NCBI GenBank assembly: GCA_963804645.1 | Contig: CAWDRG010000017.1 | Span: forward strand, 480,001 to 544,000 | Length of the DNA stretch: 64,000 nucleotides | Direction: 5' to 3' | DNA from: an uncultured Bacillota bacterium | GTDB lineage: Bacteria; Sysuimicrobiota; Sysuimicrobiia; Sysuimicrobiales; Segetimicrobiaceae | Shown here: positions 15,848-45,082 of the stretch, one piece after another | Numbering within the stretch: position 1 is the stretch's first letter | Layout: each line of letters begins with the position of its first letter | Position numbers and translations under genes: made by a program | Notes under the pieces: model-generated | What the model saw: the letters and a program-made list of their open reading frames with translations, nothing else | Told to the model about the DNA's origin: nothing | Database searches by the model: none

Positions 15848-16077
15848 CTCATTCCCCCTTGCGTGTGATTCGGGGGACGGCAGGGACGGACCAGCCCGAG
15901 TGACCGTGTTTTCTCGCGCTTCCCGCAACCCCGCACGCTACCCCCGTGTGACACCTGTCCCGGGACCTCGCCCTGCGATGCCTCCCCCTCCCTCCGGGCA
16001 AGAGCTCCCGCTCGCGGCTCTGCGCCGCTCGAGCAGGTGGCAACTGGTTAGAAAGCCTCTGCAGATGATGACGTGTC

Positions 16078-16107
16078 ATGCTAGTCGACTACCTGTTCGA
16101 TTGTCAA
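16078..16107 (-). promoter_or_regulatory. Probable promoter of the SLH-porin gene, with a ~225-nt 5' UTR
   Basis: TTGACA-18 bp-TAGCAT in an AT-enriched stretch. Confidence 0.55.
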
Positions 16108-16169
16108 GGAAATGTCACAGGTCAGACTTTCCCGATGATCGATCTACGACGCCCTTATCATGATCTCCT

Positions 16170-22721: not shown

Positions 22722-22722
22722 C

Positions 22723-23379: not shown

Positions 23380-23443
23380 GGGCGTTCACCCATACATATC
23401 CACGGCGCGGCACCCGTGTCACCGCACCGAAGACTCCACCACC

Positions 23444-24637: not shown

Positions 24638-24640
24638 CGC

Positions 24641-25483: not shown

Positions 25484-26298
25484 CGTGCAAACCCCGCGCC
25501 CCGCGCTCGGCTGGCACGAATGAACTCGACGAGGTGCGTGATCTCCGGGCTGGGCTCGATCTCCGCTTCGATGCGCGCCAGCGCGTGCGCGAGGTCGAGC
25601 CCGGACCGCACGAGCAGCCGATGCGCGCGCCGCAAACTCTCCCGGGTGCTGCGCGGGATGCCCGCGCGCTCGAGCCCAACGCGGTTCGTCGCCACGGTCC
25701 GGATCGGATTCCCGGACACCAGCATATACGGCAGCACGTCCTGCACCACCCGGCTGAAGCCGGCGATCATCGCGAGGCTGCCCACGTGCGCTCGCTGGAT
25801 GATCCCGACCATCCCCCCGAGCACGGCCCGGTCCTCGATCACGACGTGCCCGGCGATCTGGCACATGTTGGTGATGAGCACGCCGCGGCCGATCCGGCAG
25901 TTGTGGCCGGCGTGCGAGTACGCGAGCATCTCCGTGTCGTCCCCCACGACCGTCTCTGCCCCGTCCCCGGTCGCGCGGCTCAACGACACGTACTCCCGCA
26001 GAATCACGCGGTCGCCGATCCGAAGACGGCTGCGCTCGCCCGAGAAGTGGCGGTCCTGAGGCGGACCGCCGAGAATGGCGCCGGCCGAGACGCGGCAGTC
26101 GCGCCCCAACTCCGTGTCCTGCTCGAGCAGCACGTGGGGCCCGATCCACGTGCCGTCGCCGATCCGCACGCGCGGGTGGATCACCGAGTAGGCGTCGATC
26201 CGCACCCCCGCGCCGAGTTCGGCCGTCGGGTCCACGAGCGCCGTCGGATGGATCTCCACGCCGGCGGCACGGGGCGACGACCGCTCAGCCGCGCTCAC
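25480..26298 (-). CDS. lpxA: UDP-N-acetylglucosamine O-acyltransferase
   Basis: IHPTA, hexapeptide repeats, [27 protein letters not shown]. Confidence 0.94.
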
Positions 26299-26806
26299 CC
26301 ACGGCCTCCTCGCGCTGCACCGGCGCCCCGCCGTCGGCCGGGTCCATCTCAGCCATGCTCATCAGCGAATACGTCAGCATCCCCTCGGCCACGACGACGC
26401 CGCCCACGCGTGAAATCGCGTGGGCCTTCCCGAAGCGGCCGCGCGTCCGCACCAGGACCGCCTCGGTGATCAATTGATCGCCCGGACGCACGGGCCGTCG
26501 GAACCGCACCCGGTCGATGCTGGCGAAGTACGGCACCCGCCCCTCGCTGCCCGGGGTCAGGGCCACGAGCACGCCCCCGACCTGGGCCATCGCTTCCACG
26601 ATCAGCACACCCGGCATCACGGGGTGCGACGGAAAGTGTCCCACGAAAAACGGCTCGTTGATCGACACGTTCTTCAGGCCGACGATCCGCTTGCCGGGGT
26701 CCACTTCGAGGATGCGGTCGACGAGGAGCAGCGGGTACCGGTGCGGCAGCTTCACCATGATCTGCAGGACGTCCATCGCGCCGAGCTTCCGATCGTCCAC
26801 GGTCAT
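26285..26806 (-). CDS. fabZ: 3-hydroxyacyl-ACP dehydratase
   Basis: [48 protein letters not shown]. Confidence 0.96.
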
Positions 26807-27645
26807 CCCCCCTGTTCGCCGAACCCGGCGCGCGGCGCAAGCGCGCGCGCGAGCGCCACGTGCAGCCGGTGGCCCCCGCGGACGACCACGACCCGTCCGC
26901 GGATCGGACGGCCGAGCAGCGCGAGATCCCCCACCAAGTCGAGCAGCTTGTGCCGCGCGGGCTCATTCGGGAACCGCGGCGGGTTGAGAAAGCCTCCCTC
27001 GCGGATCACCAGCGTGTTCTCGAGGCTGGCGCCGAGCGCCAGCCCTCGCGCGCGCAGCGCCTCCGCATCCCGCTCATACCCCCACGTTCGCGCCGGGGCG
27101 ATCGCTTCCTCGTACGCGGCCGGCCCCCCATCGTACGTGGCCGCCTGGTCCCCAAGACCCGCGGTCAGCGTGACGACGTACGCCGCGGAGAACTGCGGAG
27201 CGGGCAGCGCGACCGCCCAGGCGTCCCCGTCCGCCACCCAGACCGGCTCGCGCACCACGAACGGCCGGCGCGGCGCCCCGAGCACGCGCTCGCCGGCCCG
27301 GTGGAGCGCACGGACGATCGGCAGCGCGCTCCCGTCGAGCCCAGGGAACTCGGGGCCGTCAACGTCGACGGCGAGATTGTCCACGCCGAGCGAGACCGCG
27401 GCCGACAGCAGATGCTCGACGGTCGAGACGCCCTCGGCCCCCCCGAGCGTCACGCATCCGGCGGTCCCGGTCACGGAATCGAGCACCGCCGGAATCGGCG
27501 GGCCCGCCCGGTCGGTCCGGCGGAACACGATCCCCGCGCCGTCGGGCGCGGGCCGCAGGGTCGCCCTGACCGCGCGTCCCGTGTGGAGGCCGATCCCTTC
27601 AACTGTGACCGCGGACGCGATCGTGCCCTGACGCCCCGGCGTCAC
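26803..27645 (-). CDS. lpxC: UDP-3-O-acyl-GlcNAc deacetylase
   Basis: [34 protein letters not shown]. Confidence 0.95.
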
Positions 27646-27695
27646 CCCGCCACCGCATCCGGGGCCGCCGGTGGGCGTGAATCCGCGCGCCGCAT

Positions 27696-28709
27696 CTAGG
27701 AACGCCCCTCAAGCCGCGCGACCCGGCGCCGGAGCTCGGCAAGCTCCCGCATCAGCGCGGGCACCCGCCGCGCCGCGGCCTCGGCACGGCGCTGCTCCAT
27801 CCGCGGACGCGCCGGGCGCCCCGCCACCACGGCACCGGGCGGCACGCTGCGGGTCACCGCGGTATCGCCGAGCACGACCGCGTCGTCGCCGACGGTCAGG
27901 TGGTCCGCGACCCCGCTCATGCCCCCGATCAGCACCCGGTGACCGATCTGCGCGCTGCCGGCGATGAACACTGCGGCCGCCATCGCCACATCCTCGCCGA
28001 TCTGCACGTTGTGGCCGATGTGCACGTAGTTGTCGAGCTTCGTGCCCCGCCCGACGCGGGTGACCCCGAGCGTCGCCCGGTCCACCGCCGAGTTCGCGCC
28101 GATCTCGACGTCGTCCCCGAGGACGACCGTGCCGATCTGGGGAATCGCGACATGCCGTTTCCCGTCCTGGGCGTACCCAAACCCGTCGCTGCCGATCACG
28201 GTCCCGGTCTGGAGGACGACGCGGGCCCCGACCTGGCACCCGTGCCGGACTGTCACGTGGGGGTGCAGCACCGCATCGGGCCCGATGCGCACGCCGTCCT
28301 CGATCACGGCGTGCGCCTGCACCTGCGCGCGGTCTCCGATCTCCACGTCGTCCCCCACCACCACGTACGGGCCGAGGGAGACGCCGGCGCCGAGGCGGGC
28401 GCGCGCGCCGATCACAGCGGTCTCGTGCACCCCGGGCCGCGGGATCGCAGCCGGCGCGAGCGCGCGCAGGGCCAGCGCGAGCGCGAGCCTGGTGTTGCGG
28501 ACGCGGATGGCGGGCAGGCGTGTCTCGGGAGCGCCTTCGGGCAGGATCACCGCGGCGGCGGCCTCGATTCCGGACAGCAGGCGGGCATCCGACACGACGA
28601 CCACCGCGCCGGGGCCCGCCTCGTCGGGCGGCGCGACCGACGTGATCTCGACCGCGGGCTCGCCGACCGCCCGCCCGCCGACCGCCCGGGCCAGATCGTC
28701 GAGCCGCAT
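27696..28709 (-). CDS. lpxD: UDP-3-O-acylglucosamine N-acyltransferase
   Basis: IGSDGFGY, IPQIG.V, EIGANSAVDR, TKLDN.VHIGHN. Confidence 0.95.
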   Translation of the reverse strand: MRLDDLARAVGGRAVGEPAVEITSVAPPDEAGPGAVVVVSDARLLSGIEAAAAVILPEGAPETRLPAIRVRNTRLALALALRALAPAAIPRPGVHETAVIGARARLGAGVSLGPYVVVGDDVEIGDRAQVQAHAVIEDGVRIGPDAVLHPHVTVRHGCQVGARVVLQTGTVIGSDGFGYAQDGKRHVAIPQIGTVVLGDDVEIGANSAVDRATLGVTRVGRGTKLDNYVHIGHNVQIGEDVAMAAAVFIAGSAQIGHRVLIGGMSGVADHLTVGDDAVVLGDTAVTRSVPPGAVVAGRPARPRMEQRRAEAAARRVPALMRELAELRRRVARLEGRS

Positions 28710-28726
28710 CGCCGCCCCCCGGAACG

Positions 28727-29135
28727 CTACTTCGACAGCCGGTCGATGACCTGCTGGGTGATGTCCGTGCCGCCGACCTCGCGCCTGGCCCTTGACCAGC
28801 ACGATGCGCAGCCCGTCCTGGCGCGCCACCTGTCCCGCCGCGTCGTCCAGCTGGGCGTTGAGTTTGCCCTCGAGATCCACCTGCATCTGCTGCAGCTGCG
28901 TCGCCAGGCTCGCCCGGCGCGCGTTCAGTTCGGCCGGGCTGACCTGCCCCTGCAGGGCCGTGAGCTCGGCGACCATCTGCTTCTCCCGATCGTCGAGCTG
29001 CTTCTGATACTGCAGCCCGACGACGCTCTCGTTCAGCACGCGCTGCGTGTCCACGACGCCGATCGACGCTCCGCCGCACCCGCTGACGAGCCCCACGGCC
29101 GCCACGACCAGCAGCGCCCCCCAGAACCGCGACAT
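28727..29135 (-). CDS. OmpH/Skp-family lipoprotein (frameshift ~28790)
   Basis: Lipobox LVSGC, IGVVD..RVL and coiled coil; the shifted frame ends GGTDITQQVIDRLSK. Confidence 0.8.
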
Positions 29136-29148
29136 CAGACCCCTCCCG

Positions 29149-30353
29149 CTACCGCTTGATTCGCGCGATCAGTTCGTCGGTGATATCCGTCACGTCGACC
29201 GTGCCAACCGCCCGTGTCAGGATGACATCATAGCCCTGTTCCTGGGCCAGCGCCGTGGCCTCCACCCGCACGTCCGCGAGAATGCTGTCCAGGAGGCGCC
29301 CGCGCTCGTCCTGGGCCTCCTGGAGCTGGGCCCGCAGGGACTGAGCCTCGGCCTGGGCTCCGGCGATCGCCTGCTGCTGCGCGCGCGCCACCTGCGCGCG
29401 CGCCCCCGCGACCAGCGCCTGCTCGCGCGTCGTGAGCACGGCTTTGATCTGCGTGTTCATCTGCGCGTTGAGCTGCGCCTGTTTGGCGGTGAGCTGGGCG
29501 TGGAAGGTCTTTTCCAGCTCGGCCTGCTTTTGCGCGAGCTGCTTCTGGCCCTCCGCGGTCAGCTGCGCTTCCAGGTCCTTGATCTGCTGCTCGTACGCGT
29601 CCTGCTGCTGCTTCTGGAAGTCGGCCAGCGCCTGCTGATTGGCCTTCTCGTGCGCGGCGGTCTTGGCGTCCCGCTCCGCCGTCAGCGCCTGGATCTGCTG
29701 CGCGACGGCCTGCTGCTGCGCGCGGTCGGCGCCCTGCACCGCCGTCTGCTTGAGCTGAAGGTTCAGCAGCGGCAGCCGGTACTGGTCCAGCATCTGCTCC
29801 TGATACTGGGCGGTGTCCTGGTTCAGGGACTGCTGCTTGTCGTCGACCGCCTTCTGCACTTGGGCCTGCAGCGCTTTCTGCTGTGTGTCAAACTCCGTCT
29901 GCTGCTGCCGCGTGCACCTGCGCCGCGTAGGCTTCGAGCTCCTTTTGGGACGCAGCGCGCAGTGCCGTGGCCGTCTGCGTGAACTGCTGCTCGAACTGCG
30001 GCCGCGCCGCCGCGAGCTCCTGCTGCGCCGTGGCCTGGAACGCGGGCTCGAGGTTGATCTGCGGCACCTGCAGCTGCGGCGCGATCGCGTTGAGCTGCCC
30101 CTCGAGGTCGGCGATGCGGCGGTCCAGCGCGTCTACGTCGCCCCAGCGCGGGTGGGCGCGGATGACCTTCTCGAAATCCACGACCACGACCTTGGGGCCC
30201 GCCGACGCGGTCGCACTGACCGTCGGGGACGTCGTCCCCTGACTCGCCGGTCGCGTGTCCCTGGCACCCCGCGAGCAGGAACACGAGCGGGAGACCCGCC
30301 CACGCCAGCCACCCGCGGCGCCGCCGGCGCGCGTCCCCGTGAGATGCGGCCAT
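29149..30353 (-). CDS. Long OmpH/Skp-like lipoprotein with extended Gln-rich coiled coil (several frameshifts)
   Basis: Lipobox LLAGC, VVDFEKVIRAHP at the N-terminus and A.EQGYDVIL..DITDELI at the C-terminus. Confidence 0.7.
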
Positions 30354-30387
30354 CGTCACCCTGCGCACCGCGCCGCTCGCCCGCCGC

Positions 30388-30864
30388 TCACTTGGAGTTG
30401 AGGGCCTTGATCACTTGATCGGTCAGGTCCACGCCGCCGTACAGGACCGCGGTGCGGTCGAGCACGATGGAGACGCCCTGCTGCGTGGCGACTTTTTGGA
30501 TCGCCGCCCGAATGTCTTTGTCGAGGCCGCCGAGCAGCTCGGCGCGCTTGTTGAAGATCGTCTGATCGACCTGACGCTGCAGGTCCTGCTTCTGCGCCGG
30601 CGTCATCGTCTTCATTTTCGCCTGCGCGTCGGCGATCTGCGCCTGCGCAAAATCGCGCAGCGCGGACTCGGCCGCGGCCTTGTTCGGGTGCGCGTTGAGC
30701 GCCCGCGTCATGTCGACGAAGCCGATCGTGTTCGCCTGGCTTCCGAACGCCGGCGCCACCCCGCGCGTCGTCGCGACGTACCCGGCCCCTGCGAGCACGA
30801 CGATCACCGCGACTGCGATCCCGATCATCTTGGCGTTCCACGTGTTTGTGCCCCACCGCATCAT
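30388..30864 (-). CDS. skp: OmpH/Skp periplasmic chaperone
   Basis: IGFVDM.RAL.AHP..AIQKVA...GVSIVLD...VLYGGVDLTDQVIK. Confidence 0.88.
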   Translation of the reverse strand: MMRWGTNTWNAKMIGIAVAVIVVLAGAGYVATTRGVAPAFGSQANTIGFVDMTRALNAHPNKAAAESALRDFAQAQIADAQAKMKTMTPAQKQDLQRQVDQTIFNKRAELLGGLDKDIRAAIQKVATQQGVSIVLDRTAVLYGGVDLTDQVIKALNSK

Positions 30865-30997
30865 GCGCTGTCTCCCTCCCCTATGTCTCGTGTGGCGTCA
30901 TCCGGTCCCCACCACACCGTCGTGCCGCTCCGCCCCTCGCCGTGCCGGACCGAGTGCCTGGCGCCGTCCCGCGCGCTGACCCGGGACGGGCCCCGCC

Positions 30998-32879
30998 TCA
31001 GAACGTCGTCCCGGTGGAGATCCACAACTGTCCGCCCTCCGTGCTGATCCCGTAGTCGATGCGGAACAACCCCAGGGGGGTATGGGCCGCGATCCCAACC
31101 CCATAGTCGACATTCAGGTTGGTGGGCAGGGTGCCGAAGGGCTCGGTATCGCCGGCGTCCGCAAACACGATCCCGGTGAGCCCCGCGACCGACTTCAGGA
31201 ACGGGATCGAGCTGATCGGGAACCGGTACTCGCCGGTGAACAGCGACTCGTTGTCGCCCTGGAACCGGCCGTACACGTACCCCCGGAGCGTGTTCTGCCC
31301 GCCGAGGTAGAACTGCTCCTGAATCGGCAGCGGACCGCTCGCCGCCCCCAGGCTCATGCGTCCCACCACCACCGCGTCGCCGGCCGGCCAGTACTTGACG
31401 TAGTCGAACAGGATCTTCTCGAACGTAAAGTCTCCCCCGAGCGCGCTCTGCGTGTTGATCGAGATCTCGCTCCCCGACGTCGGGTTGAGCGGGTCGTTCC
31501 GCGTGTCCTTCTGCGCGCCGAGCAGGATCGCGTTGACCGTGCCGGGCGTGAAGACAAAATTGCTCGGGATCGTCGAGCTCGTGACGACGAGGTTGGACGC
31601 GGAGCCGAACTGCGTCGCGATGGACTTGACCCCGTACTGCCAGTTCTCGCCCGCGCTCGGAGGCCCGAACGGCGCCGTCCACGTGACCTGGCCGCCCTGC
31701 TGATACTCCGTGTATTGAAACCCGCCGTACAGCCCGCCGAACTGATAGTCCGTCGGAATCGTGGTCAGGTTGAACGCCTGGAAATCGAACGCGGTGTTGC
31801 GTCCCATCCAATACGGCTCGTGGAACGAGACGTTGAACTCGCTGCCGTTGAGGGAGGTCGTGTCGTACGCGACGGAGAGGCTCTGCCCGTTGCCGCCGAA
31901 GTCGCTGTCGCCCACGGAGACGAGCCCCTCGATGCCGTTGGTCGTGCTGTAGCCGGCGCCGAAGCTCAGCGTGGACGTCTTCTGCTCGGTCACGGTGATC
32001 GTCACGTCCACGGTGTCCGGCTGCGTGCCGGGCCCCGGATCGGCCTTCACGTCGGAGAAGTACTTGAGCGCGTACAGCTTCTTGAAGCTGGCGTTGATCT
32101 CGTTCGCGTTGAACACGTCCCCGACCTTGAACGTCAGGTTGCGGAGGACGACGTACTCCTTCGTCTTGTGCAGCCCCACGAACTTGATCGCCTCGATCTT
32201 GCCCTCGATGATCGTGACCGACAGCACGCCCTGGTCATCGACCGAGATATCCGAGACGCGCGCGAGCACGTAGCCGCGGTCCTGGTAGATCTTGTTCACC
32301 GCCTGCGCGCCCTGACCGCATCGTCACGGTGTTCAGCACCTGCCCCGGTCCGATGCCGATCGCTTTCTCGATGTCGGCGGTGCTCACCACGGTGTTGCCG
32401 TTGATCTTCACCGCGGTGACGACGGGATTCTCGGCCACGATGAACACCACCGTGACGCCGTCGGCCGTGGGCTCGAGGCGGACGGCGACGTCGGCGAACA
32501 GCCCGAGCCCGAGAATCGACTGCACGTCATTGCGCAGGGTCTCTTCGTTCAGCGGGTCGCCGGGCTTGGTCGCCACCGCGGCGAGCACCGTGGCGGTCGG
32601 CACGTGGTCGTTACCGCGCACCTGCACGTCGCTGATCTTCTGCGGCGGCAGCGTCTGCTGCGGCACCCCGGGGACCGGCGTGAACGGAGACGGCCCGGTG
32701 GGGGTAGGCGGCGGCGTCTGCGGCTGCCCGGGCTGGGGTGCCTGGCCGGGCTGCGGCGTCGTGATGTTGAACGGCTGCGCCGCGAGCGGACCCGCCCCGT
32801 ACCAGGCGAACAGCAGCACCCCGAGCAGGATGCCCGCCGCCGCGCGTACCGGTCCGATCCGTCTGAAGAATGCGCCCAC
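30998..32879 (-). CDS. bamA: Omp85/BamA outer-membrane assembly factor (frameshift ~32310)
   Basis: Signal peptide, Pro-rich linker, about three POTRA domains, barrel motifs FYLGG..LRGY, GEYRFP and TPLG.FR.DYG, terminal Phe. Confidence 0.9.
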
Positions 32880-33059
32880 GCTGACCTCCGCGATAGTGCA
32901 TGATATGCTGCCGCGCCGCCACCGAGGATCCCTCCCGCGCGCCCCCGTCAAAATGTGCCGGCCGGACGCCCGGCGTCGGGGGGCGAGAGCAGCGTGGCCG
33001 CTTCGCCGGACGCCGGCGCAAGCCACCTGGAGCGCAGCACCACGTCGTCGACGACTCGG

Positions 33060-33489
33060 TCACCGAACGTCCGCGCCGCAGCCGCCCACCGACACCTCGC
33101 GGGGCGGGAACGGCGGGAGCGTCAGCGCGCCGCCCGGGTCCAGCCGGATCACGTCCTCCGGCGCCGGTGCGGCGGATGCGGCCCGCGCCGCCGGCGTTGC
33201 CGCCGGTGCCGTCGCGCCGACGCCCAGGAACGCGGCGTATCCGACGGCGACGATCACGGCCGCAGCCCCGAGCGCCAGCGCGGCAGTCGGAACACGCCGC
33301 GCCCGCGGTGCGGGCGGCTCGGCCGCCAGCTGCATGCCGGCCTCGCGCGCACGGCGGACCTCCGCTTCGGCCAGCATCAGCCGGAGCACGGCCGCGCGGT
33401 GATCGCCGCGGCGGTGGTCACGCCGGGCACAGCGCCAGCCACTCCTCCGCGTGGCGCAGATGATCGAGCAGCGCGTCGGGCCGCCGCAT
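33060..33489 (-). CDS. Single-pass membrane hypothetical protein, candidate anti-sigma factor (frameshifted; both ends uncertain)
   Basis: MRRPDALLDHLRHAEEWL.. joins VLRLMLAEAEVRRARE after a shift, followed by one TM (ALALGAAAVIVAVGYAAFLGV); starts 4 bp after the sigma stop codon. Confidence 0.55.
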
Positions 33490-33493
33490 CGCG

Positions 33494-34151
33494 CTACTCG
33501 GGCACCCGCTGCGCCGAGAGCCCGGGTCCCGCCGGGGCGATCGCCTCTCGGAGCCGCTGGAGCGCGTGCTTCTGGAGCCGGTAGAAGTGGGACAGGCTGA
33601 TGCTGAGGTCCCGCGCGATCCGGCGCGGCTCCTCGGCCCGCAGAAACTGCCCGCGCAGGATGCGCCGTTCGCGCTCGTCCGGCAGGCGGTCGATCGCGGC
33701 CGCGATCTGATGCACGAGCACGCCGTCCTCGACGGACGCCAGCAGGTCGGCCGCCGCGGGATCCGGGAACTGCTCCAGCACGGCGTCTCCGGCGGCGTCA
33801 GCGGCGCCCGCCAGCCGCTCCGATCTCAGCGCGTTCAGGATCCGTCCCCGGATCCGATAGGTCGCGAACGTACTGAATCGCACCCCCCGCGCCGGATCGA
33901 ACCGCTCCACGGCCTGAATCAGCCCCACGGTCCCCTCCTGGATCATATCCATGAGGATCGCCTCGCGCAACCGCAGATGGGTCGCGATCTTGAACACGAG
34001 CGGCTGGTACGCCTCGATCAGGCGCGCCCGGCTGCGGCCGTCGCCCCGGCCTCGATACGCCGCCCAGAGCCGGGCCTCCTCGGCCGGCTTGAGCAGCGAC
34101 ACCGTTATGCAGTTCTCGCAGGTACTCCGCAAACAACGCTCCACGCTCCAT
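33494..34151 (-). CDS. Alternative sigma-70-family sigma factor (frameshift ~34100)
   Basis: YLREL..LLKPAEE (region 1.2), DMIQEG.VGLI.AVERFDP.RG.RFSTFA.YRIRG.I (region 2) and a region 4 HTH. Confidence 0.9.
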
Positions 34152-34220
34152 TTCTACAGTATCCACGCGCGCGGGCCGCGACTCTCCTCGAGCCGCCCCC
34201 GGCGCCGGGACCGGGCGTGC

Positions 34221-37200
34221 CTAAAACGGGATGCGGGCCAGCAGATAGAACACGTTGTCTCCCAAACTGTCCACATTATACGACGCGGACAGCGTGGGAC
34301 TGAGATTATACTGAATCCCGAGCACGGTATACGGCTGCCCGGTCGGGTTGAGGGGGGCGACGGTCCCGAAGCCCGGCCGCGTGTAGGCCGACGACCTCCC
34401 CAGGACCTCCCCGAGCGAGAGATACACGTTCGTCAGGATATACTTCCCGATCTGCACATTCAGCGGGCTCTGCGCATCGTACGAGATCGTCAGCGCGTCC
34501 AGGCCGAACGCCTGCTGCATCGACGACGAGATCGACCCGAACACCACCTGGCTCAGGAGGCCGCCCGGCGAGCTCTGCCCGCCGCTGGTGCCCGCGACCA
34601 GCGCGAGCACTTGGTCTTGGCTCATCGGCGGATCGGAGGTCCAGCTCAGCGTCGGCGTCGGCAGCACGCCGTCGACGTTCAAGAACACGCGCGTCGGGCC
34701 GTAGAGTCCCTGCGCGGTCACGGAGATGTGCGGAAAGAGCCCGGACCCCTCGGAAAACGTCAGGGCGCCCTGCGAGACCGTGTACGGCGTCCCCAGAATG
34801 TTGATCGTGCCGTTGACCGCCTGGATCTGCCCGGTGAGAACCGGCCTGCCGATCGTGCCGCCGATGTGCAGCCCGCCGGTGAGCCGGGCGCGCGCGGGGC
34901 CCTGCACGTAGTTCACGGCGTCGCCGAGCACGACCGAGGTGTCGAGCCGGATCGGCACGTCGCTGAGGGTGCCGGGGCCGGCCGCCTCGGTCACCGCGAC
35001 GGTGCCGTGCGAGAGGTTGATGGTCCCGGCCAGCGTCGGCCGCAGCGCGGGACCCGAGAGGCTGAGCGAGCCGTCGACCCCGCCGGAGTAGAGCCCGGGC
35101 ATCACGACGGTGATGTTCGTGCCGCTCAGGACGAGCGCGACGGTGTCCGGCCGCAGATCCTTCACGGAGACCGTCCCCTGTCCGGTCAGCGTGCCTCCGC
35201 CCATCGTGGCCGAGAGCTGCTGCAGCTCGATCTGCGACTGGGAGAAGTTGATGTTGATGTTGAGGTTCTCCACCGGGGTCGTGAGCGGCCCGATGAGGAA
35301 GCGTCCGCCGTGGGACTGGAGGACGCCCGTCATCTCGGGGTTCGCGGGGGTCCCCCCGATCGTGACGTCGCCGGCGATCGTGCCGCTGGCGTCGCGGATC
35401 GCGGGCGTAAACAGCGTCAAGAACGAGAGGTCGGTGTCGGCCAGCGACAGCCGCAGATCGAGCGGGCCGTTCGGCGTGAGGCCGAATGCGGACGGATCGA
35501 CCGGCAGCGTGCCCTCGAGCGCGAGCTCGTGGGTGCCTTTGTCGATCGTCCCATTTTCTACCGTGACGATGCCGTCCTTGTAGAACGCGAGCACGGCGAT
35601 CTGATCCACCGTGGCGTTGGGGAGCCCGGCGTTGGCCGCCTGGAACGACAGACCCGCGGTGGGGTCGCGGGTCGGCCCGCCGAACTGGACCGTGAAGTTC
35701 AGCGTCCCGGCCAAGACGTCCTTCGGGCCCATGCGAAACAGGGGACGCAGGAGGTTCGCGTCGAGATTCTGACCCGACAGCTCGACACTGCTGGTGCCCT
35801 CGAGCTCGACGCGGCCCTTCGCCGAGATCGAGCCCTGCTGCGGATGCAGCTCGAGGGTCTGGATGTCGACGACGCCGTGCGCGAGGACCAGGTCCGCGGT
35901 GCCGGTCCCGACGGGAATCCCGCTGACCTGGCCGTCCTGCATCGTGATCACCAGATGCGCCGTGGGATCCGCGAGCGCGCCGTCGAGCGCCACCGTGCCG
36001 TCGATCGTCCCGGCGACCGGCACCGGCGGCGCCGCGGACGTTGCGCGGAAGATCGTGGCGAGCTGCCCGTGCTGCACGGTGAAGTTGAGGTCCGCGGTCG
36101 GCTTCGACCCCATCTTGATCACGCCGGTCACGCCATAGCGCTGATCCTGCTGCGTCAGCGAGACCGGCGCCACGGTCAGGGCTTGGGCTCGATAGTCGAT
36201 CGCGCCCGACGCCTGGAAGGCCTGTCCGTTGATCGAGAGCCCGGGCGAGGCGACGGTCGCCTTGAGCTCAGGATCCTTCATCGTGCCCGTCACCTGGCCG
36301 GACAGCGAGACCGTGCCTGCCAGCGCGAGTCCCCACTGCCCGAGGGAGGGAATGTCCGACAGGTGGATCCGGTCGGCCGTGAACGCCAGGTCGACGGCGC
36401 CGCCGAAATCCACCAGGCCGGACGCGTCGAGCCGCGAGTCGTTGACCGCCGCGGAGAACGACTCGATCCGCACCTGCCCGCCGGTTCCGGCGAACTCGAT
36501 GGACGCCGCGTCGATGCGCTGGCCCGAGACCGTCCCCTGCGCGAACGCCACGGTTCCGGACACCGCCGGGTGCGCGAGCGGCCCGGCGACCGCGATGCGC
36601 CCCGCGAGCGTGCCCGAGACGTCGATCCCGGGCACGAGCGCGTGGGCGAGCGGGCCCGCCGGGACTCCCCGGGCCTGCACCGAGACGCCTTCGGCGAACA
36701 GCGGGTGCAGCCCGACCTCCCCGCTCACGTCGTAGGACGCCCCGCCGCGGACCAGGGCCAGCCCCGACGAGCCGATGCGCTGCGGCCCCGCGTCCACGTC
36801 GCCGGTGGCAAGGTCGAACGGCACGAGGCCCAGGCGCCCGTCCCACGCGGTGACCGCGCCGGAGACCACCGGCGCGGTCACCGTGCCCGTGAGCCGGCCT
36901 TCCAGATCGGCCTGCCCGGAGAGTCCGAGCATGGCGTCCTCCGCCTGCGGCGCGCCGAACCATCCCGGGATCTGCTCCAGCGGAACGTCGTAGACCGACA
37001 TCGCAAGATCCATGCCGCCCGCCGGGGTGATCCCGCCGAACCCGTACGCGACGGCGCCGCCGCGGCGCAGAGTGACAAAGTCGAGGGCCAACGCCCCCTG
37101 GTCGTCCCAAAACAGCGCGTGCAGATCATTGAACGACATGCCGCGCGCGGACCCGGCGGGCATCGTCACGGCGCCCAACAGGCGCGCCCGGTCACCGGTG

Positions 37201-38603
37201 CCCACCCCGGCGATGTCGCCCGACACCCGACCGCCGACGTCCGCCGGCACCGCGAGCCCGGTCTCACCCAGGGCCTGCAGATCCACGTCGTCGGCGGTGG
37301 TCGCAAACGCGTACGACCCCGAGGTCCCCGACACCCCGACCAGCCCGCTGCCCGCGACGTGTCCGCCCGCGACTCGCGCGGAGAGGTCGCTCACCGCGAA
37401 CAGACCCCCGCCGTACTGAAACCGGGTCCGCAGGCCCGAGAACGCGGCCGCGTTCACCCGGCCCGCCGCCGCGTCGACGGTCCCGTCCAGGTAGGGCGCG
37501 TCGATCGGTCCCGAGATCCACACGTTGCCGCTGGCCTGTCCCGCGAGCCGGATCCCGCCGCTCGCGAAGAACAGCCGGCGGACCATCCCAAGATCGACGC
37601 GCTGGGACGTGACGACGAGATCAAGCCATGTCTGGGCCCGCGCGGGAAAGTCCACGGTGCCCCGGACCTGGACCGGTTCGCCGTTCACGACCGCCGACAG
37701 GCGCGACGTGCCCGCGCGGTCGTCGCCCAGCACGATGGTGCCGGACAGGCTGCGGACGTTCAGGCGGCCCGGCAGGTACTCGATCGCGCCATCGCGGAGC
37801 CGGATCGTGGCCGAGTAGTCGAGCGTCGTCTCGCCGCCCTCGGGCGTGATGAGCATATGCGCCCGCGCGTCGAACCGCCCGCCGCCCCAGCGGATCTCCT
37901 GCAGGCGGACGAGATAGGCGCCCCAGCGCTTCGCGTCGCCGTCGTTCCAGGTCACGTCGAAATCGAAAATGCCGTCCGCCTCGAGGTACTCGCCCTGCAC
38001 GGCCGCCTGCTCCCCGTCCGTGCTTCGCCCCGAGAGCGCGAACGCGACCTGCCGGCCGGGGCGAAACTCGATCGTGCCGGCGATGCCGGAGAACCGCGTC
38101 GCAAACGGCGCGGACGCCGACTCCCAGCCGTCCGAGAAGCCCACGATCCCGCCCCGGACGACGACGCGGCCGTGCAGCTGCGGTCCAAGCGAGGTCTGGG
38201 TGCGGCTCAGATAGTCCTCGAAGTTCCACGCGCCCGCTGCGTCCCGCGCGACGGCGATCCGCGGGGTCACGAGGTCCACCTCGGCGACACTCTGCGTCAC
38301 GTCGCCGGGGTGGGTCAGCAGCGCACCCAGGTCGAGCCCGATGTGAATCTGATCCGCGGAAAACGCCACGCCCCGGCTGAACCCGCCGGGCTCGGCGATC
38401 ACGAGGTCGCGCAGATCAAAGCCCCGCCAGGGATCCCCGCCGACGCTGCCGAGGGCCACCGGCCGCCCGAGAGCCTGCCCGAGACGCGTGACCAGTTGCT
38501 GCCGGACCACCGCTGAGAGCCATCCGCTTGAGACAAACACCTCCCAGGCGGCGGTCGCGATCAGGACCACCATCGCGGCGGCGGCCAGTAGCCGCCAAGG
38601 CAC
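34221..38603 (-). CDS. tamB: TamB/AsmA-like translocation and assembly module protein (start uncertain, 38603-38651)
   Basis: N-terminal anchor, ~1450 aa of repeated 'GTL..P...G' beta-taco units and a C-terminal DUF490-like SDPPMSQDQVLAL..QIGKY segment. Confidence 0.85.
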   Translation of the reverse strand: MPWRLLAAAAMVVLIATAAWEVFVSSGWLSAVVRQQLVTRLGQALGRPVALGSVGGDPWRGFDLRDLVIAEPGGFSRGVAFSADQIHIGLDLGALLTHPGDVTQSVAEVDLVTPRIAVARDAAGAWNFEDYLSRTQTSLGPQLHGRVVVRGGIVGFSDGWESASAPFATRFSGIAGTIEFRPGRQVAFALSGRSTDGEQAAVQGEYLEADGIFDFDVTWNDGDAKRWGAYLVRLQEIRWGGGRFDARAHMLITPEGGETTLDYSATIRLRDGAIEYLPGRLNVRSLSGTIVLGDDRAGTSRLSAVVNGEPVQVRGTVDFPARAQTWLDLVVTSQRVDLGMVRRLFFASGGIRLAGQASGNVWISGPIDAPYLDGTVDAAAGRVNAAAFSGLRTRFQYGGGLFAVSDLSARVAGGHVAGSGLVGVSGTSGSYAFATTADDVDLQALGETGLAVPADVGGRVSGDIAGVGTGDRARLLGAVTMPAGSARGMSFNDLHALFWDDQGALALDFVTLRRGGAVAYGFGGITPAGGMDLAMSVYDVPLEQIPGWFGAPQAEDAMLGLSGQADLEGRLTGTVTAPVVSGAVTAWDGRLGLVPFDLATGDVDAGPQRIGSSGLALVRGGASYDVSGEVGLHPLFAEGVSVQARGVPAGPLAHALVPGIDVSGTLAGRIAVAGPLAHPAVSGTVAFAQGTVSGQRIDAASIEFAGTGGQVRIESFSAAVNDSRLDASGLVDFGGAVDLAFTADRIHLSDIPSLGQWGLALAGTVSLSGQVTGTMKDPELKATVASPGLSINGQAFQASGAIDYRAQALTVAPVSLTQQDQRYGVTGVIKMGSKPTADLNFTVQHGQLATIFRATSAAPPVPVAGTIDGTVALDGALADPTAHLVITMQDGQVSGIPVGTGTADLVLAHGVVDIQTLELHPQQGSISAKGRVELEGTSSVELSGQNLDANLLRPLFRMGPKDVLAGTLNFTVQFGGPTRDPTAGLSFQAANAGLPNATVDQIAVLAFYKDGIVTVENGTIDKGTHELALEGTLPVDPSAFGLTPNGPLDLRLSLADTDLSFLTLFTPAIRDASGTIAGDVTIGGTPANPEMTGVLQSHGGRFLIGPLTTPVENLNININFSQSQIELQQLSATMGGGTLTGQGTVSVKDLRPDTVALVLSGTNITVVMPGLYSGGVDGSLSLSGPALRPTLAGTINLSHGTVAVTEAAGPGTLSDVPIRLDTSVVLGDAVNYVQGPARARLTGGLHIGGTIGRPVLTGQIQAVNGTINILGTPYTVSQGALTFSEGSGLFPHISVTAQGLYGPTRVFLNVDGVLPTPTLSWTSDPPMSQDQVLALVAGTSGGQSSPGGLLSQVVFGSISSSMQQAFGLDALTISYDAQSPLNVQIGKYILTNVYLSLGEVLGRSSAYTRPGFGTVAPLNPTGQPYTVLGIQYNLSPTLSASYNVDSLGDNVFYLLARIPF

Positions 38604-38647
38604 CGCGCGCGTCCGGGAGGGCCGGGCCGGGCCCGGCGGGGCGCCTG

Positions 38648-40442
38648 TCAGTGCGCGCCGCCCCCGATCCGCAGCAGGATGGGAATACGTCCGTCCAGCA
38701 CCCAGGGCGTCGTCAGCGTCGACGAGATCCGCCCGGCCCCGGGGCCGGTCTGCGCGCCGGGGGGCACGGCGGTCGTCAGGATCTCCGCGACGATGTCGGT
38801 GTGCCGCTCCTGCTGCTCGAACAGGCGGATCGCCTCCGTCAGGCTGCCCGCCACGGGCGGCGTTTGCCCGGCGGCTGGGACGGTGCCGCCGTTCGGCAGC
38901 ACCGTCGTGGTCCCGGCCCGCACCACCAGCAGCGCCGGACCCGGGGGAAGATCGGCCGGGACGGTGACGGTGACGTCGCGGGTCTCGGGCTCGCCGCGGA
39001 ACGGCCGCACGGTGACGCGCACGTGCAGCAGTTCGCCGGGCGCGACGACGCGGGTGTCGACGTCCGCGGCGGTAATCAGCGCGGTCTCCTGGCGGCTGGT
39101 CACATGAATGTCCATCTCCATGTCGGTGGGCAGCACGTCGGTGAAGTCGTTGCTGAAGGCGAGGCGCAGCGCCGCCGGCACTTCCGAGAGCGCCTGCCCG
39201 GCGATGTCGCTCGCGCTGTAGAATCGGTTGTCGCGCGTGATCGCGTCCGGCAGACCGCGGCCCCGCACGGTCATCGTCACCTGCGGCCGTGCCGGCGCCG
39301 GAGCGGTTCAGCGCGCGCTCGATCGCCTCTCGGGCCCCGAGCGTGACGAGCGCCGGCGCCAGCGTCTTGTCGGGCAGCACTTGATACACGAAGCGGCGGG
39401 ACGCGCCCGAGTCGTCGTCGGTCACCCGGACCACGACGCCGAACAGCCGCGGCAGCACCCCGATCGTCCCGCCGACCGCCGCCGGACGGTCCTCCGTAAT
39501 GACGCCGACGACCGCGCCGGCCGCGCCGACTTTGATGTTCTGGGACAGCCCGCGCACCGTCTGTAAAATGGTCGCGTTCGTCAGCGCGTACGTCGCCGGC
39601 CCCAAGTTCATGAAGGGATGGCCGAAGGCCACCAGCCGGTTGCCGTCGCGGTACGTCAGCGTGCCGATCGCATACGCGCCGATGTCCCCGCGCAGCAGCG
39701 CGACCCCGATCGCGCTCCCCGGCTCCAGCGGCATCGACGGCGGCAGCGCGGCCGACGACCCGCCGGCCATCGGCTCGACCCCCATCGGCTCCAGCACTTG
39801 TGCGAGAGACGCCCGCGCGGCGTCGTCGAGCCCCGACAGAAACAGCGGCGTCGCCGCCGGCACCGCGACAAGCGTGCCGGGCGCCGTCCGCGCGACGGCG
39901 CGCCGGGACGCCGCGACCGTAATGTGTCGGATCACCTGGCCGCCGACGCGGAGCGGCGCGATCGCCACCGTCCGGGTGGACGGGACCGCCGCCGTTCGCG
40001 GCAGGTCGCGCAGCATGTACTCAATCGGCGTAAAGAGCCCGATGAACGGATCGGACGCCTGGAACGAGTAGCTGAACGCCCCCGCCAGCCGCCCGCCGAG
40101 ATAAATCGGGCTTCCGCTCATCCCGGCGGCCAGTCCCCCGGCGCTCTGCAGCGCCGGCCCGGACGCACGGAACAGCACGAGATCCCCGGCCGGTCCCGCG
40201 TTGCGCAGGATGCCGAGCACGCGCACCTGAAACTCCGAGAGGCGGGTGCCGACCAGCACCGTCCGACCCGTGCCGGTCATGCCGACGGTGATCGCCGACA
40301 CCGGCAGCACCGCGGGCCCCTGTGCGGAGCGCGCCGGAACGGCCGGGGCAGTCGTGCCGAGCACGACCACCGCCGCGATGGCCGCCCAGCGGGCCCGACC
40401 GACGTGCCGGTGCATCCATCGACCCGCCATCCGACCCGCCAT
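38648..40442 (-). CDS. SpoIVB/S55-family peptidase domain protein, paralog 2 (frameshift ~39285)
   Basis: Signal peptide, GMTG.G.TV..GT, AAGMSGSPIY, IGTLTYRDG..VAFGHP. Confidence 0.85.
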
Positions 40443-40447
40443 CGCCG

Positions 40448-42250
40448 CTACCTCACCGTCATCGGGATTTGGAACTTGCCGAGCACCACCCACTGGGTCG
40501 GCACCGTCGTGCCCGCCGGCGTCTCGATGTCGGGGTTCGCGTTGCTCCCGACCGCGGCGAGCACCGCCTCGGGCACCAGCTCGACGAGCACCTCAGTATT
40601 CTTGCCCGCGTCCTCGAATTGTGCGACCGCTTCCTCAAGCGACGCGGTCCCGGTCGGCGTTCCCTCCTGCCCGACGAGGGCCTGGAACACCTCGGCCGGA
40701 GACGCCCCGGTGCCGTTGTTCAACGTGCCCGCGGTGCCCACCAACAGGAACGCGGGGCCGGTCGGAAAGGTGCGGGGCACGGTAAACTGGACGATGCGGC
40801 TGAGGTCCTCAGACTCCCCGTACGGCCGCACCGCGACCGCGACCCGCATCGTGTCCCCGGGCCGCACCTCGCGCGTGCTGGGCCGCGCCGAGACGAGCAG
40901 GGCGGTGTCAGCGCGGCTCGTCACCGTGATGGTGATGGTCATGTCGATCGGGTCGATGCTCTGGAAAAAGTTGCCGAACAAGAGCTGCGTGGCGCCCGGC
41001 ACGTCGAGCGCGGAGGCGGTCGCGATATCGCCGATATCGTACGCGAGATCCTCGCGCACGATCGCGTCGGGGACGTCGCGGGCGCGCAGCGAGATGCTCA
41101 CCTGCGCGGACCCTCCCGCGACCTGATCCATCGCCCGCTGGATCAGGCTCAGCGCCGTGGTCGGCACGAACGCTTCGGCCAGGTCCGGCCGGCGCACGAC
41201 CTGCGCCCCGTACGACTGGGTCTTGCCGGTATCGGCATTCCGCACCTGCACCCGCACGCCGAACGTGCGGGGGAACTGCCCCACGGTCCCGGCGATCCCG
41301 ACCCCGCGGTCCTGCGAGATCATCCCCACGAGGCCGCCGATGCTGCCTTCCTTAAAAGGTTCGTTCAGCGAGCGGACGATCGTATCGATGTACGCGGTGG
41401 TCAGCATCATCGACGCCGAGCCCGCGTTCAGCATCGGGTGCCCGAACGCCAGAATCTGGTCCCCCCGGCGGTAGGTGACGGTGCCGATGCCCCCCATCTC
41501 GGCGTCCCCCCGCACCAGCTCCACGCCGAGCGAACTCCCGGGCTGCAGCGGCGGCGCCGCAAACGACGCCGACCCGGCGTACTGCTGGCGCGGGCTGACG
41601 TTGAACCGGCGGAGCGCCCGCGACAGAACCTGAAACGCCCCGGGCGTGACGCCGGACGCGAACAGCGACATCGCAGCCGGTGCGAACGCGGCGAGACCCG
41701 GCAGCGGGTGGGCGTTGTAGACCGCCGCGTCCGCGGCGGAGTTCATCACGAGCACGCGGGAGATCCGCCGCCCATCCGGCGCCGCGATCGGCCGGTCGGC
41801 CTGATACATCCCGGAGGCCGGCGACGCGCCCACGCCCGCGGGGGCCCCGAGGACTTTCAGCATCGCCTCGATCGGCGTCGCGAGGCTCAGGTCCGCGTCC
41901 GGCCCGGGAAACTCGTACCCGTAGCTGAGCGCGCCCAGCATGCGCCCGCCGATGTAGATCGGGCTCCCGCTCATCCCCGCCGCGTTGCCGCCGGCTTCCC
42001 GAATCGCGGGACCGCCGGCGCGGAACAGGACGAGGTCGGTCGGACCGCCGTGAAGAATGCCGAGGATCTTGACGTCGAACCGCTGGATCGTGGTACCGTG
42101 CAGTACCGTCAGGCCGTAGCCGGTCATGCCCGCCCGCACCGCGCTGATCGGCATCGTCGGCGGACCCGCCGGGCCCGCGGCCAGACCTTCGGACGCGGCG
42201 GCCCCGAGGCAGATCGCCAGGATGACCGCTATCGCTCCCACCCTCCGCAC
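40448..42250 (-). CDS. SpoIVB/S55-family peptidase domain protein, paralog 1
   Basis: Signal peptide, GMTGYGLTV.HGT, AAGMSGSPIY, IGTVTYRRG..LAFGHP. Confidence 0.88.
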   Translation of the reverse strand: MRRVGAIAVILAICLGAAASEGLAAGPAGPPTMPISAVRAGMTGYGLTVLHGTTIQRFDVKILGILHGGPTDLVLFRAGGPAIREAGGNAAGMSGSPIYIGGRMLGALSYGYEFPGPDADLSLATPIEAMLKVLGAPAGVGASPASGMYQADRPIAAPDGRRISRVLVMNSAADAAVYNAHPLPGLAAFAPAAMSLFASGVTPGAFQVLSRALRRFNVSPRQQYAGSASFAAPPLQPGSSLGVELVRGDAEMGGIGTVTYRRGDQILAFGHPMLNAGSASMMLTTAYIDTIVRSLNEPFKEGSIGGLVGMISQDRGVGIAGTVGQFPRTFGVRVQVRNADTGKTQSYGAQVVRRPDLAEAFVPTTALSLIQRAMDQVAGGSAQVSISLRARDVPDAIVREDLAYDIGDIATASALDVPGATQLLFGNFFQSIDPIDMTITITVTSRADTALLVSARPSTREVRPGDTMRVAVAVRPYGESEDLSRIVQFTVPRTFPTGPAFLLVGTAGTLNNGTGASPAEVFQALVGQEGTPTGTASLEEAVAQFEDAGKNTEVLVELVPEAVLAAVGSNANPDIETPAGTTVPTQWVVLGKFQIPMTVR

Positions 42251-42409
42251 GCTCGTCCCCCCTCGTGGCCTCATCGGTGTGACCCCGGCGCCGTCGCGCG
42301 ACGACCGTGTGCTCTCGGCGCCTTGGGCACCGCGGACATCCCCCGAAAACGGCACGAGGGGCACGCGCGCATGCCCCTCCTCACCGGCTGCTCCGGTCCC
42401 CGAGGACCG

Positions 42410-42727
42410 TCAGTGCGGCGTAATCGCGACGACCGGATCTCCGATATTGACGAAATCTCCCACCCCGACCATGACCTGGGACACCTGCCCGCCGACCGGC
42501 GCCACCGCGGCCGGGACCGCGCTGCCGGTGGTCGTCCGCACGAACACGAGCGGATCGCCCTGCTTCACCGTCTGGCCGTTCGTCGCGAGGCGAAGCGGGA
42601 GCACCTGACCGGAGATCGCCGAGCGGACCACCACGGCGGTCTGGGCGCTCCCCGTCAGCGGCAGCGCCGACACGAGCAACACCGCGGCGAGCACGATCGG
42701 GCCCAATGCCTGCCACCGACGCGTCAA
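42410..42727 (-). CDS. Secreted biotinyl/lipoyl-fold protein lacking the acceptor lysine
   Basis: Signal peptide, then SAISGQV..GQTVKQGDPL..AVAPVGGQV...V.VGDFV..GDPVV barrel-sandwich pattern; the turn reads RTTTGS instead of MKM/DKA. Confidence 0.75.
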   Translation of the reverse strand: MTRRWQALGPIVLAAVLLVSALPLTGSAQTAVVVRSAISGQVLPLRLATNGQTVKQGDPLVFVRTTTGSAVPAAVAPVGGQVSQVMVGVGDFVNIGDPVVAITPH

Positions 42728-42753
42728 ATCGCACCACCCACCTTATCAAGCAA

Positions 42754-42783
42754 ATTATAGGCACCGCCGCCTCATACTGTCAA
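42754..42783 (-). promoter_or_regulatory. Sigma-70-type promoter heading the outer-membrane cluster
   Basis: TTGACA-18 bp-TATAAT; the -35 overlaps the wecB stop codon. Confidence 0.75.
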
Positions 42784-45058: not shown

Positions 45059-45082
45059 GAGCCGCCCGGCCGCCGGGCCGGC

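Follow-up and report, generated by a model that had tools for sequence, protein, structure and literature searches.

How do diderm bacteria other than Proteobacteria detect and repair defects of their outer membrane (OM)? The question is raised in concrete form by a 64,000-nucleotide stretch of DNA from a soil bacterium (hereafter the window; C17:480001-544000 in a 5.3-Mb assembly of 22 contigs, 96.8% complete and 4.2% contaminated), in which an alternative sigma factor and a small membrane protein are encoded between tamB and bamA. The G+C content of the window is 65-74% and nearly all of its genes lie on the minus strand, where a promoter is followed, 5' to 3', by a lipoyl-like gene, two genes for S55-like proteases (S55a and S55b), the genes for TamB, the sigma factor, the small membrane protein and BamA, and Skp-like open reading frames (ORFs); on the 3' side of these lie the genes for LpxD, LpxC, FabZ, LpxA and LpxB, then LptC, LptA, an ABC ATPase and LptF/G. 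A first-pass annotation of the window had listed these elements, all of which were recovered on the minus strand, and had read them as a candidate proteolytic cascade in which the S55 proteases act on a sigma/anti-sigma pair. The evidence supports the pair and not the cascade.

The sigma factor and its small neighbour in the tamB-bamA interval

The sigma factor gene (33494..34151, minus strand) encodes about 215 amino acids (aa), starting at ATG 34151 or TTG 34136. In the frameshifted ORF of the window, Pfam recognizes Sigma70_r2 (72.8 bits) and, below its cut-off of 24.1, r4 (21.2 bits), and the only NCBIfam model to exceed its cut-off is the generic sigma-70 model TIGR02937 (89.7 bits against 42.9). 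Partial NCBIfam matches to RpoS, RpoH, SigB/F/G, WhiG and FliA start in region 1.2, and a precomputed match to region 1.2 (PF00140) is found on many Negativicutes orthologues. When a profile of 33 sigma orthologues was compared with solved structures, the closest was the WhiG-type 6pfv (105.9 bits), together with RpoS, FliA and SigA, and none of the best 60 structure matches was named an extracytoplasmic function (ECF) sigma. Because region 1.2 is present and the nearest solved relatives are WhiG, RpoS and FliA, the protein is classified by sequence as a compact group-3-like factor of the WhiG/FliA/RpoS kind, with regions 1.2, 2 and 4, and not as an ECF sigma. Its orthologues show a mean column identity of 57%, and a Negativicutes orthologue is 43% identical.

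The name 'sporulation-specific sigma factor', given to a homologue by one source, and weak full-length matches to the SigK and SigF/G models could be taken to mean a developmental, sporulation-type factor that sits in this cluster by chance. Those matches fall far under the family cut-offs (for SigK, 60.7 against 298.65 bits), and the best solved relatives named above are of other kinds. Moreover, the presence of SonA and SonB, which are encoded around bamA in Acetonema longum and are taken up below, does not track sporulation ability, according to PMC13018214. We regard such a chance placement as highly improbable.

The small protein is encoded directly downstream (32948..33489, minus strand). 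Its ATG lies 4 bases past the sigma stop and it contains one hydrophobic segment, in keeping with the closely coupled single-transmembrane protein described in the first-pass annotation; the limits of 33060-33489 given there for the corrected protein are revised here to 32948-33489 from the run contigs described below. The predicted layout comprises a hydrophilic N-terminal two-helix domain, one transmembrane helix and a Pro/Ala-rich periplasmic tail. The N-terminal domain can be aligned across all three lineages considered here (the window's own phylum, Negativicutes and Halanaerobiales) and has eight invariant residues: Trp17, Leu18, Ala21, Gly28, Ala40, Ala42, Glu43 and Ala47. A single hydrophobic 19-mer is found at about residues 63-113 in 28/29 family members; its N-terminal flank is usually richer in Lys and Arg than its C-terminal one, and by this positive-inside pattern the N-terminal domain would be cytoplasmic. 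The family shows no N-terminal signal peptide and no conserved lipobox. A short C-terminal helix, LSxxE..L..AA..SLR, is present in most members and is common to the phylum and the Negativicutes.

A profile of the N-terminal 80 residues retrieved 848 clusters at 50% identity (E <= 0.001), 473 of them at E <= 1e-10, and nearly all of the best 150 of the 848 are 64-245 aa long with the domain at the very N-terminus. The top match, a protein of 1158 aa hit in 21 stretches, was disregarded as a repeat protein with a low-complexity helix match. As to names, one source automatically calls a Sporomusa homologue 'Anti-sigma-W factor', a protein atlas search with a Sporomusa homologue returned only unnamed Bacillota clusters, and NCBIfam gave no match for the small-protein fragment of the window.

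We compared the occurrence of the two genes in the 94 genomes grouped with that of the window (the phylum). The sigma factor is present in 86 and the small protein in 83, always as one copy each; without the two unpublished genomes G022 and G030, the counts over 92 are 84 for sigma, 90 for S55 and 81 for the small protein. All 8 sigma-less genomes also lack the small protein, and in the 3 genomes that have sigma without the small protein a contig end cuts the sigma gene. Two genera (3/3 and 2/2 genomes, 86-99% complete) have lost both together. Among 72 related loci, TamB is followed by sigma in 47 and directly by BamA in 4 (L017, L068, L070 and L073), one is a separate S55 copy (L025), and 20 end too early. 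A homologous small ORF starts -38 to +137 bases from the sigma stop in 37/47 sigma loci, and the remaining 10 break off at most about 530 bases from it. In L017, a member of the phylum without the pair, TamB abuts BamA.

Beyond the phylum, 121 genomes were sampled from the class of a Negativicutes metagenome-assembled genome (MAG), and 104 of them have exactly one sigma orthologue, scoring 188-279 bits against about 80 for other sigmas. All 12 of the best Negativicutes loci, which were inspected individually, read TamB-sigma-small protein-BamA. A Phascolarctobacterium-like genome has the same order with S55-mlaE-mlaF-mlaD-tolC ahead of tamB, which agrees with the operon mlaEFD-tolC-tamB described in PMC10665443. 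Among 41 Halanaerobiales genomes sigma is present in 8, and both loci inspected read S55-TamB-sigma-small protein (129-130 aa)-BamA-Skp. The five-gene core is common to three deep lineages (the phylum, the Negativicutes and some Halanaerobiales), a similar cluster having been noted at first pass for diderm Firmicutes, and the pair stands exactly between tamB and bamA in all three (86/94, 104/121 and 8/41 genomes sampled). By gene content and synteny, the region is the conserved core of an OM biogenesis cluster of diderm Terrabacteria, S55-TamB-sigma-small membrane protein-BamA-Skp-Lpx/Lpt.

A complex of the sigma factor with the N-terminal domain of the small protein, a comparison proposed in the first-pass annotation, was predicted from the L014 sigma together with the first 60 residues of its partner, using our own alignments (A3 and A2; one row of each comes from the unpublished genome G221). 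The predicted complex reached ipSAE values of 0.74, 0.73 and 0.77, whereas none of 3 controls scored above 0.00. The mark applied to ipSAE is reached by 116/157 solved complexes and 2/215 mismatched pairs, a calibration that is rough only, since own alignments were used here. At least 76% of the contacts are common to the runs, and the partner has a pLDDT of at least 76. On the sigma side, the predicted interface is formed by residues 33-44 and 65-74, including the invariant R36, E41, Q44, Q66, L72 and I73, and on the partner side by residues 12-17 and 35-49, including the invariant W17, L39, A42 and E43. The block D63-Q66-E67-G68-G71-L72-I73 in which the sigma interface lies is the region 2.2 motif, which in other sigmas contacts the clamp helices of RNA polymerase, and a partner bound there would therefore block core binding. 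Because the partner belongs to no known family, the result is unlikely to be the memory of a solved complex, and we consider it very likely that the two proteins bind each other. A sigma/anti-sigma pair built into the OM cluster, as had been proposed, is thus well supported by the adjacency of the two genes, by their joint loss and by a predicted complex that stands up against its controls; as to binding that would keep sigma from core RNA polymerase, what speaks for it is this model, in which region 2.2 is covered.

The S55 proteins and their relation to the pair

The first-pass annotation placed two S55 peptidases upstream of this pair. S55a (40448..42250, minus strand) is a protein of 600 aa, and S55b (38648..40442, minus strand) is its tandem paralogue, about 40% identical, with a frame interrupted by an assembly insertion at 39283/39284. 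Both exceed the 25-bit cut-off of Pfam S55 (PF05580), with 33.8 and 29.9 bits, over profile positions 126-210 only, and the Negativicutes and Halanaerobiales homologues score 56.2 and 46.6 bits. In S55a the Ser half of the family, profile positions 126-192, lies at residues 47-110; the His half, profile positions 12-112, follows about 150 residues later, at approximately residues 251-351, as a weak match (18.6 bits, E 0.0021) to what is nevertheless the sole family listed. SpoIVB has the order PDZ-His barrel-Ser barrel, whereas here the Ser barrel comes first and the His barrel later, and no PDZ domain was detected in the two window ORFs (Pfam, E <= 0.01). The Ser half is also N-terminal in the Negativicutes and Halanaerobiales homologues, and the swapped order was noted in the homologues of L127, L128 and L129. 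As judged from this domain order, the S55 proteins are circularly permuted relative to SpoIVB, in all three lineages.

A search with S55a scored 1869 homologues at E <= 1e-5 among 8000 candidates. Ser94 of the GMSGSP motif and His271 of the GHP motif are invariant in 27 sequences, as are D249, D314 and D356, and GMSGSP, GH(P) and two Asp are kept in 13 sequences of three lineages, sigma-less ones included. The family profile matches SpoIVB (9lnf) with an E-value of 1.4e-8, and GMSGSP aligns with the catalytic Ser that is mutated in this S378A crystal form. In a structural model of S55a (pLDDT 83.7, pTM 0.81), residues 30-138 resemble the C-terminal barrel of Deg5, DegQ, DegS and SpoIVB (Z 5.0-6.8, modest), residues 191-325 resemble SplE and Glu endopeptidase (Z 6.0, modest), and residues 448-600 resemble Ig-like sandwiches. 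A Foldseek search of the PDB with the whole 600-residue model gave scattered multi-domain matches, of which only 9lnf (121 columns) and the Rv3671c protease had high probability, and phmmer with the His-barrel fragment found nothing among PDB sequences at E <= 10. Pfam, motif and fold matches indicate that the secreted proteins are probably active permuted serine proteases. Like SpoIVB of B. subtilis, they have a homologous Ser-bearing barrel and are secreted between two membranes; unlike SpoIVB, they are permuted, have no detected PDZ and carry about 270 extra C-terminal residues, including the Ig-like sandwich. SpoIVB itself acts on SpoIVFA, freeing the protease that processes pro-sigmaK, and not on an anti-sigma factor.

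The distribution of S55 was found to be wider than that of the pair. S55 is present in 92/94 genomes of the phylum, 117/121 of the Negativicutes and 39/41 of the Halanaerobiales, and it is kept by 6/8, 15/17 and 31/33 of their sigma-less genomes (52/58 in all), with catalytic motifs intact in the sigma-less lineages L017, L025, L068, L070 and L073. With this wider range, S55 is therefore not dedicated to the pair and has a role without it. In the other direction, sigma occurs without S55 in 2/198 genomes (0/86, 2/104 and 0/8), and the two Negativicutes counter-examples were dismissed because their contigs end before the expected S55 position. The distribution is thus nested, which is compatible with S55 acting upstream of the pair. 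Independent phyletic distributions, which the first-pass annotation had set as counting against its cascade, were seen in one direction, S55 occurring independently of the pair, and hardly in the other; similarly, the survey of co-occurrence and synteny that it called for shows sigma and the small protein jointly kept and lost, but S55 kept in sigma-less genomes. An S55-driven cascade acting on the pair is not supported by these counts.

In its full form, that idea would have S55a, S55b or both cleave the small protein on its periplasmic side upon envelope stress, in the manner of a site-1 protease, and so free sigma, giving an analogue of DegS-RseA-sigmaE made from other families. The secreted proteins keep their Ser and His motifs in all three lineages, their genes share the cluster with the pair, and the rarity of sigma without S55, confined to contig ends, fits such a step. 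In addition, SpoIVB, the founding S55 member, is described as a signalling protease in PMC5491611. The persistence of S55 with its motifs in most sigma-less genomes argues for a main role independent of the pair, the two window ORFs lack the PDZ domain in Pfam searches, and the periplasmic part of the supposed substrate is highly variable while S55 is conserved. We consider this cleavage unlikely, and, given the distributions, acting on the pair is improbable as the main task of the proteases.

The best explanation is that the S55 proteins belong to the OM machinery itself. Like S55a and S55b, the S55-domain proteins Vpar_0521 of Veillonella parvula and F7NM31 of A. longum are encoded in an OM cluster; in the window two tandem copies lie directly upstream of tamB, and in Negativicutes mlaEFD and tolC stand between S55 and tamB. 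Vpar_0521 was recovered from each of the three OM preparations of V. parvula and is described as a protein of unknown function that diderm Firmicutes conserve (PMC5491611), and F7NM31 is one of two proteins that co-elute with BamA in A. longum, with 3 peptides (PMC13018214). Cluster S55 proteins are therefore familiar from the literature and functionally uncharacterised, as the first-pass annotation had remarked. A permuted SpoIVB-type protease that is almost universal in OM clusters and has been reported with BamA is of interest in its own right.

Promoter-like elements and a possible envelope circuit

In 30000-46000 of the window, 3 promoter-like sites were found where shuffles predict 0.5. 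The consensus sigma-70-type promoter noted at first pass (42754..42783, minus strand; TTGACA-18-TATAAT, read from 42783 to 42754) matches at 12/12 positions. A 12/12 site lies 5' of the lipoyl-like gene in 13/57 related loci, all from the window's own clade; among the other loci one reaches 11/12 and the rest score at most 9. Another conserved element, GAGGAGAG-N18-GATACT (34158..34189, minus strand), lies between tamB and the sigma gene of the window and at the same place in 5 clade relatives. Other families of the phylum (approximately 18 loci) have a related element, CAGGA(C/G)(T/A)T-N12-13-(T/G)CGAA, in their tamB-sigma spacer; these counts come from a regular expression, which some variants visible by eye escape. 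We infer that the element is the promoter of the sigma, anti-sigma and bamA unit, and it is possibly recognised by the sigma factor itself. Its presence in the tamB-sigma spacer makes it improbable that the whole cluster is transcribed as one unit, contrary to the single OM operon behind one promoter proposed at first pass. A terminator scan gave 5 sites against 4.7 expected and therefore defines no operon boundaries.

Searched genome-wide in five genomes, the pattern CAGGASWT-N12-13-KCGAA gave 3, 4, 4, 2 and 17 matches against 1, 1, 0, 0 and 2 in controls, some of the extra sites lying within genes. Of the 17 matches in G223, 11 are one repeated element: an identical 26-base string, CAGGACTTTAGTGCGCTAAAGTCGAA, occurs 11 times, several times at contig ends (e.g. 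L097, L107 and L111), and is probably the end of a mobile element, unrelated to sigma, that the promoter-like motif matched by chance. No OM theme appears among the matches, and we therefore claim no regulon from them. The hexamer CAGGAC is common to the promoter-like regions of both phyla and was set aside as weak evidence, being a 6-mer in 100-200 bases; in Negativicutes it overlaps a plain sigma-70-like site, TTCCCA-N17-TATAAT.

Two further features of these spacers were observed. In the Negativicutes loci L085-L095, a conserved block just 5' of the small-protein start codon consists of the near-palindrome CCAGAATCTGG, then TTCCCAGGA(C/T)TATA and a TATAAT box, and looks like a promoter with an operator site. 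The tamB-sigma spacers of two hot-spring MAGs (L038 16285-16458 and L044 16360-16550) contain long purine-rich repeats, AAGGGAAAAGGG..., followed by their pyrimidine complement, and could fold there into a large hairpin.

We propose a circuit in which the cytoplasmic N-terminal hairpin of the small protein, about 55 residues long, would cover sigma region 2.2, the main surface for binding core RNA polymerase, and so keep sigma at the membrane. The Pro/Ala-rich periplasmic tail, mostly ending in the conserved short helix, would report the state of the envelope, and sigma, once freed, would act at the promoter-like element that precedes its own gene and those for the anti-sigma factor, BamA, Skp and the Lpx proteins, and would raise transcription from it. 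S55a and S55b are taken as secreted, probably active permuted proteases of the OM machinery, not dedicated to the pair. In this scheme gene content, synteny and joint loss are observed and the binding is predicted, whereas we infer the signal and the regulon, as we would any proteolytic step. As a whole, an OM cluster core with a sigma/anti-sigma pair, an envelope signal and sigma release is the account we favour and consider probable, with less assurance than the binding of the two proteins.

Several observations weigh against it. Conservation is low in the periplasmic tail, and neither the clade of the window nor one other group nor the Halanaerobiales copies have the helix at its C-terminal end. 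The anti-sigma domain is short and joins no known anti-sigma family, such as zf-HC2/RsiW-type, RskA or RseA_N, 0/35 members scoring above a Pfam cut-off (lowest E-value 0.025). A spacer of 100-250 bases that holds a promoter-like region separates the sigma gene from the small-protein gene in Negativicutes, and the pair is therefore not always co-transcribed. Beyond the G223 repeat, the pattern search left 2-4 matches per genome against 0-1 in controls, without an OM-specific gene set in the five genomes. Finally, if the family corresponds to SonB, the authors of that study predict a lipoprotein of the OM, the wrong membrane for an anti-sigma factor (PMC13018214).

By gene order alone, the small protein is very probably the SonB of this 2026 paper. 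Like it, SonB (F7NM24), from sonB-bamA-sonA-skp1 of A. longum, is encoded directly upstream of bamA, has one predicted transmembrane helix and occurs in most, though not all, Negativicutes (PMC13018214). Unlike the present reading, the paper calls SonB a putative OM lipoprotein of unknown role and leaves the neighbouring sigma unmentioned. The small protein could accordingly be a structural accessory of BamA or TamB, a SonB lipoprotein or anchor that does not bind sigma, with sigma controlled in another way. This fits the published account, in which SonB has a predicted transmembrane helix, is taken for a putative OM lipoprotein, is co-expressed with BamA and shows synteny with bamA, sonA and skp1 (PMC13018214), as well as the promoter-like region that the Negativicutes gene shares with bamA and not with sigma. 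An accessory of this kind does not account for the strict joint presence and loss of the small protein with sigma; moreover, the conserved part is the hydrophilic N-terminal domain, cytoplasmic by its charge pattern, signal peptide and conserved lipobox are lacking, and the predicted complex passes its controls. SonB is reported missing from V. parvula and A. fermentans (PMC13018214). Of these two roles for the family, we rate that of a purely structural accessory as improbable, and the sigma-binding one offers a new reading of SonB, which the 2026 study left without a function.

The arrangement is reminiscent of SigmaE-RseA-DegS-RseP in E. coli, where a single-pass inner-membrane protein likewise has a cytoplasmic N-terminus, here predicted to hold sigma, and is encoded in an adjacent gene. 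In E. coli, rseP adjoins bamA-skp-lpxD-fabZ-lpxA-lpxB and sigmaE drives those genes; here the module itself adjoins bamA-skp-lpxD-fabZ-lpxA-lpxB. The systems differ in that the sigma of the window is non-ECF with region 1.2, the presumed anti-sigma part is a hairpin of about 55 residues from no known anti-sigma family and not RseA-like, the neighbouring protease is S55-like and not an HtrA protease with PDZ as DegS is, and no RseB-like gene was seen here. The DegS-RseA-RpoE analogy drawn at first pass may accordingly stand as one of function and fails as one of membership, the sigma not being ECF and the anti-sigma domain matching no known family. A two-helix element suffices to hold sigma in CnrY (class II) and in RsiG-WhiG, and WhiG (6pfv/6pfj) is the best solved relative of the sigma factor here; unlike the small protein, RsiG is soluble and needs c-di-GMP, CnrY has an ECF partner, and neither has sequence similarity to it.

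A full-text literature search turned up no publication dealing with a sigma factor of this cluster, papers beyond the reach of the search being possible. The word 'sigma' is absent from the accessible part of PMC13018214 and from the main text and two supplements of PMC5007114, occurs in PMC5491611 only about rpoS and in PMC10665443 only in a supplier's name. What appears to be new is a non-ECF sigma predicted to be held by a new anti-sigma family inside an OM assembly cluster, a pair that is a concrete candidate for the sensor asked about at the outset. It is conceivable, and in our view unlikely, that the whole represents an ancestral envelope-stress pathway of diderm Terrabacteria, older than the split between Firmicutes and CSP1-3/Sysuimicrobiota, in which a group-3-like sigma and a SonB-type anti-sigma lie between tamB and bamA and the tether is cut by BamA/TamB-associated permuted S55. 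If true, it would be a sigmaE-like circuit whose components all come from other protein families and which is connected straight to the machinery of OM assembly.

Corrected gene models and further features of the locus

The gene models used above differ from those of the assembly, in which five broken frames are found. Single-base extras are present at 32315 (in bamA), 33079 and 33430 (both in the small protein), 34102/34105 (in sigma) and 39283/39284 (in S55b), and contigs of four public runs (X1, X2, X4 and X5; 95-99+% alike) are without one base at each of the five places. In the uncorrected frames, the first approximately 15 codons of sigma lie elsewhere, the small protein is spread over three frames and BamA over two, and S55b and TamB are read as a single ORF of 2090 aa. 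This fusion was rejected, as the frameshift at about 39283 separates two genes, S55b (38648-40442) and TamB (34221-38603). A same-genus genome has intact genes for S55b (598 aa), TamB (1496 aa), sigma (214 aa) and BamA (695 aa); at the DNA level only one 1.1-kb stretch of it aligned with the window, at 76%, and the frameshifts were placed by the run contigs instead. Because the run contigs lack exactly those bases and the genes of the same-genus genome are intact, the broken frames are 1-base insertions of the assembly and carry no biology.

Among the other genes of the cluster, the lipoyl/HlyD-like protein (42410..42727, minus strand; 105 aa with a hydrophobic N-terminus) matches HlyD_3 (29.3 bits) and Biotin_lipoyl (24.7 bits) in Pfam, both over cut-off, and most loci of the phylum have a tblastn match to it on the 5' side of S55. 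TamB (34221..38603, minus strand; AsmA-like, likely GTG start at 38603) is assigned by its C-terminal domain (Pfam PF04357, 150.4 bits), and BamA (30998..32879, minus strand) by its POTRA domains (59.5 and 57.6 bits) and Omp85 barrel (108.2 bits). The Skp/OmpH-like ORFs and the genes for LpxD, LpxC, FabZ, LpxA, LpxB, LptC, LptA, an LptB-like ATPase and LptF/G were assigned by Pfam within 19921..30864 (minus strand).

A few minor observations concern the surroundings. A 479-aa ORF at 27696-29135 (minus strand) joins an OmpH/Skp-like start (residues 25-64) to LpxD from residue 162 onwards, and may be a real fusion or reflect further frame errors; three more OmpH fragments lie at 29149-30864. In L129, a 423-aa ORF without a Pfam match (15584-16855) directly follows bamA, where the small POTRA-bearing barrel SonA would be expected. 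The genes for a DUF3084 protein (88.6 bits) and a family-2 glycosyltransferase (16650-17684, minus strand), located where the Lpt genes end, may be part of the same envelope cluster. All five insertions fall in genes of one 9.5-kb stretch; the assembly seems indel-prone and other genes may carry the same type of error, and other broken or fused ORFs of this genome are therefore to be read with care.

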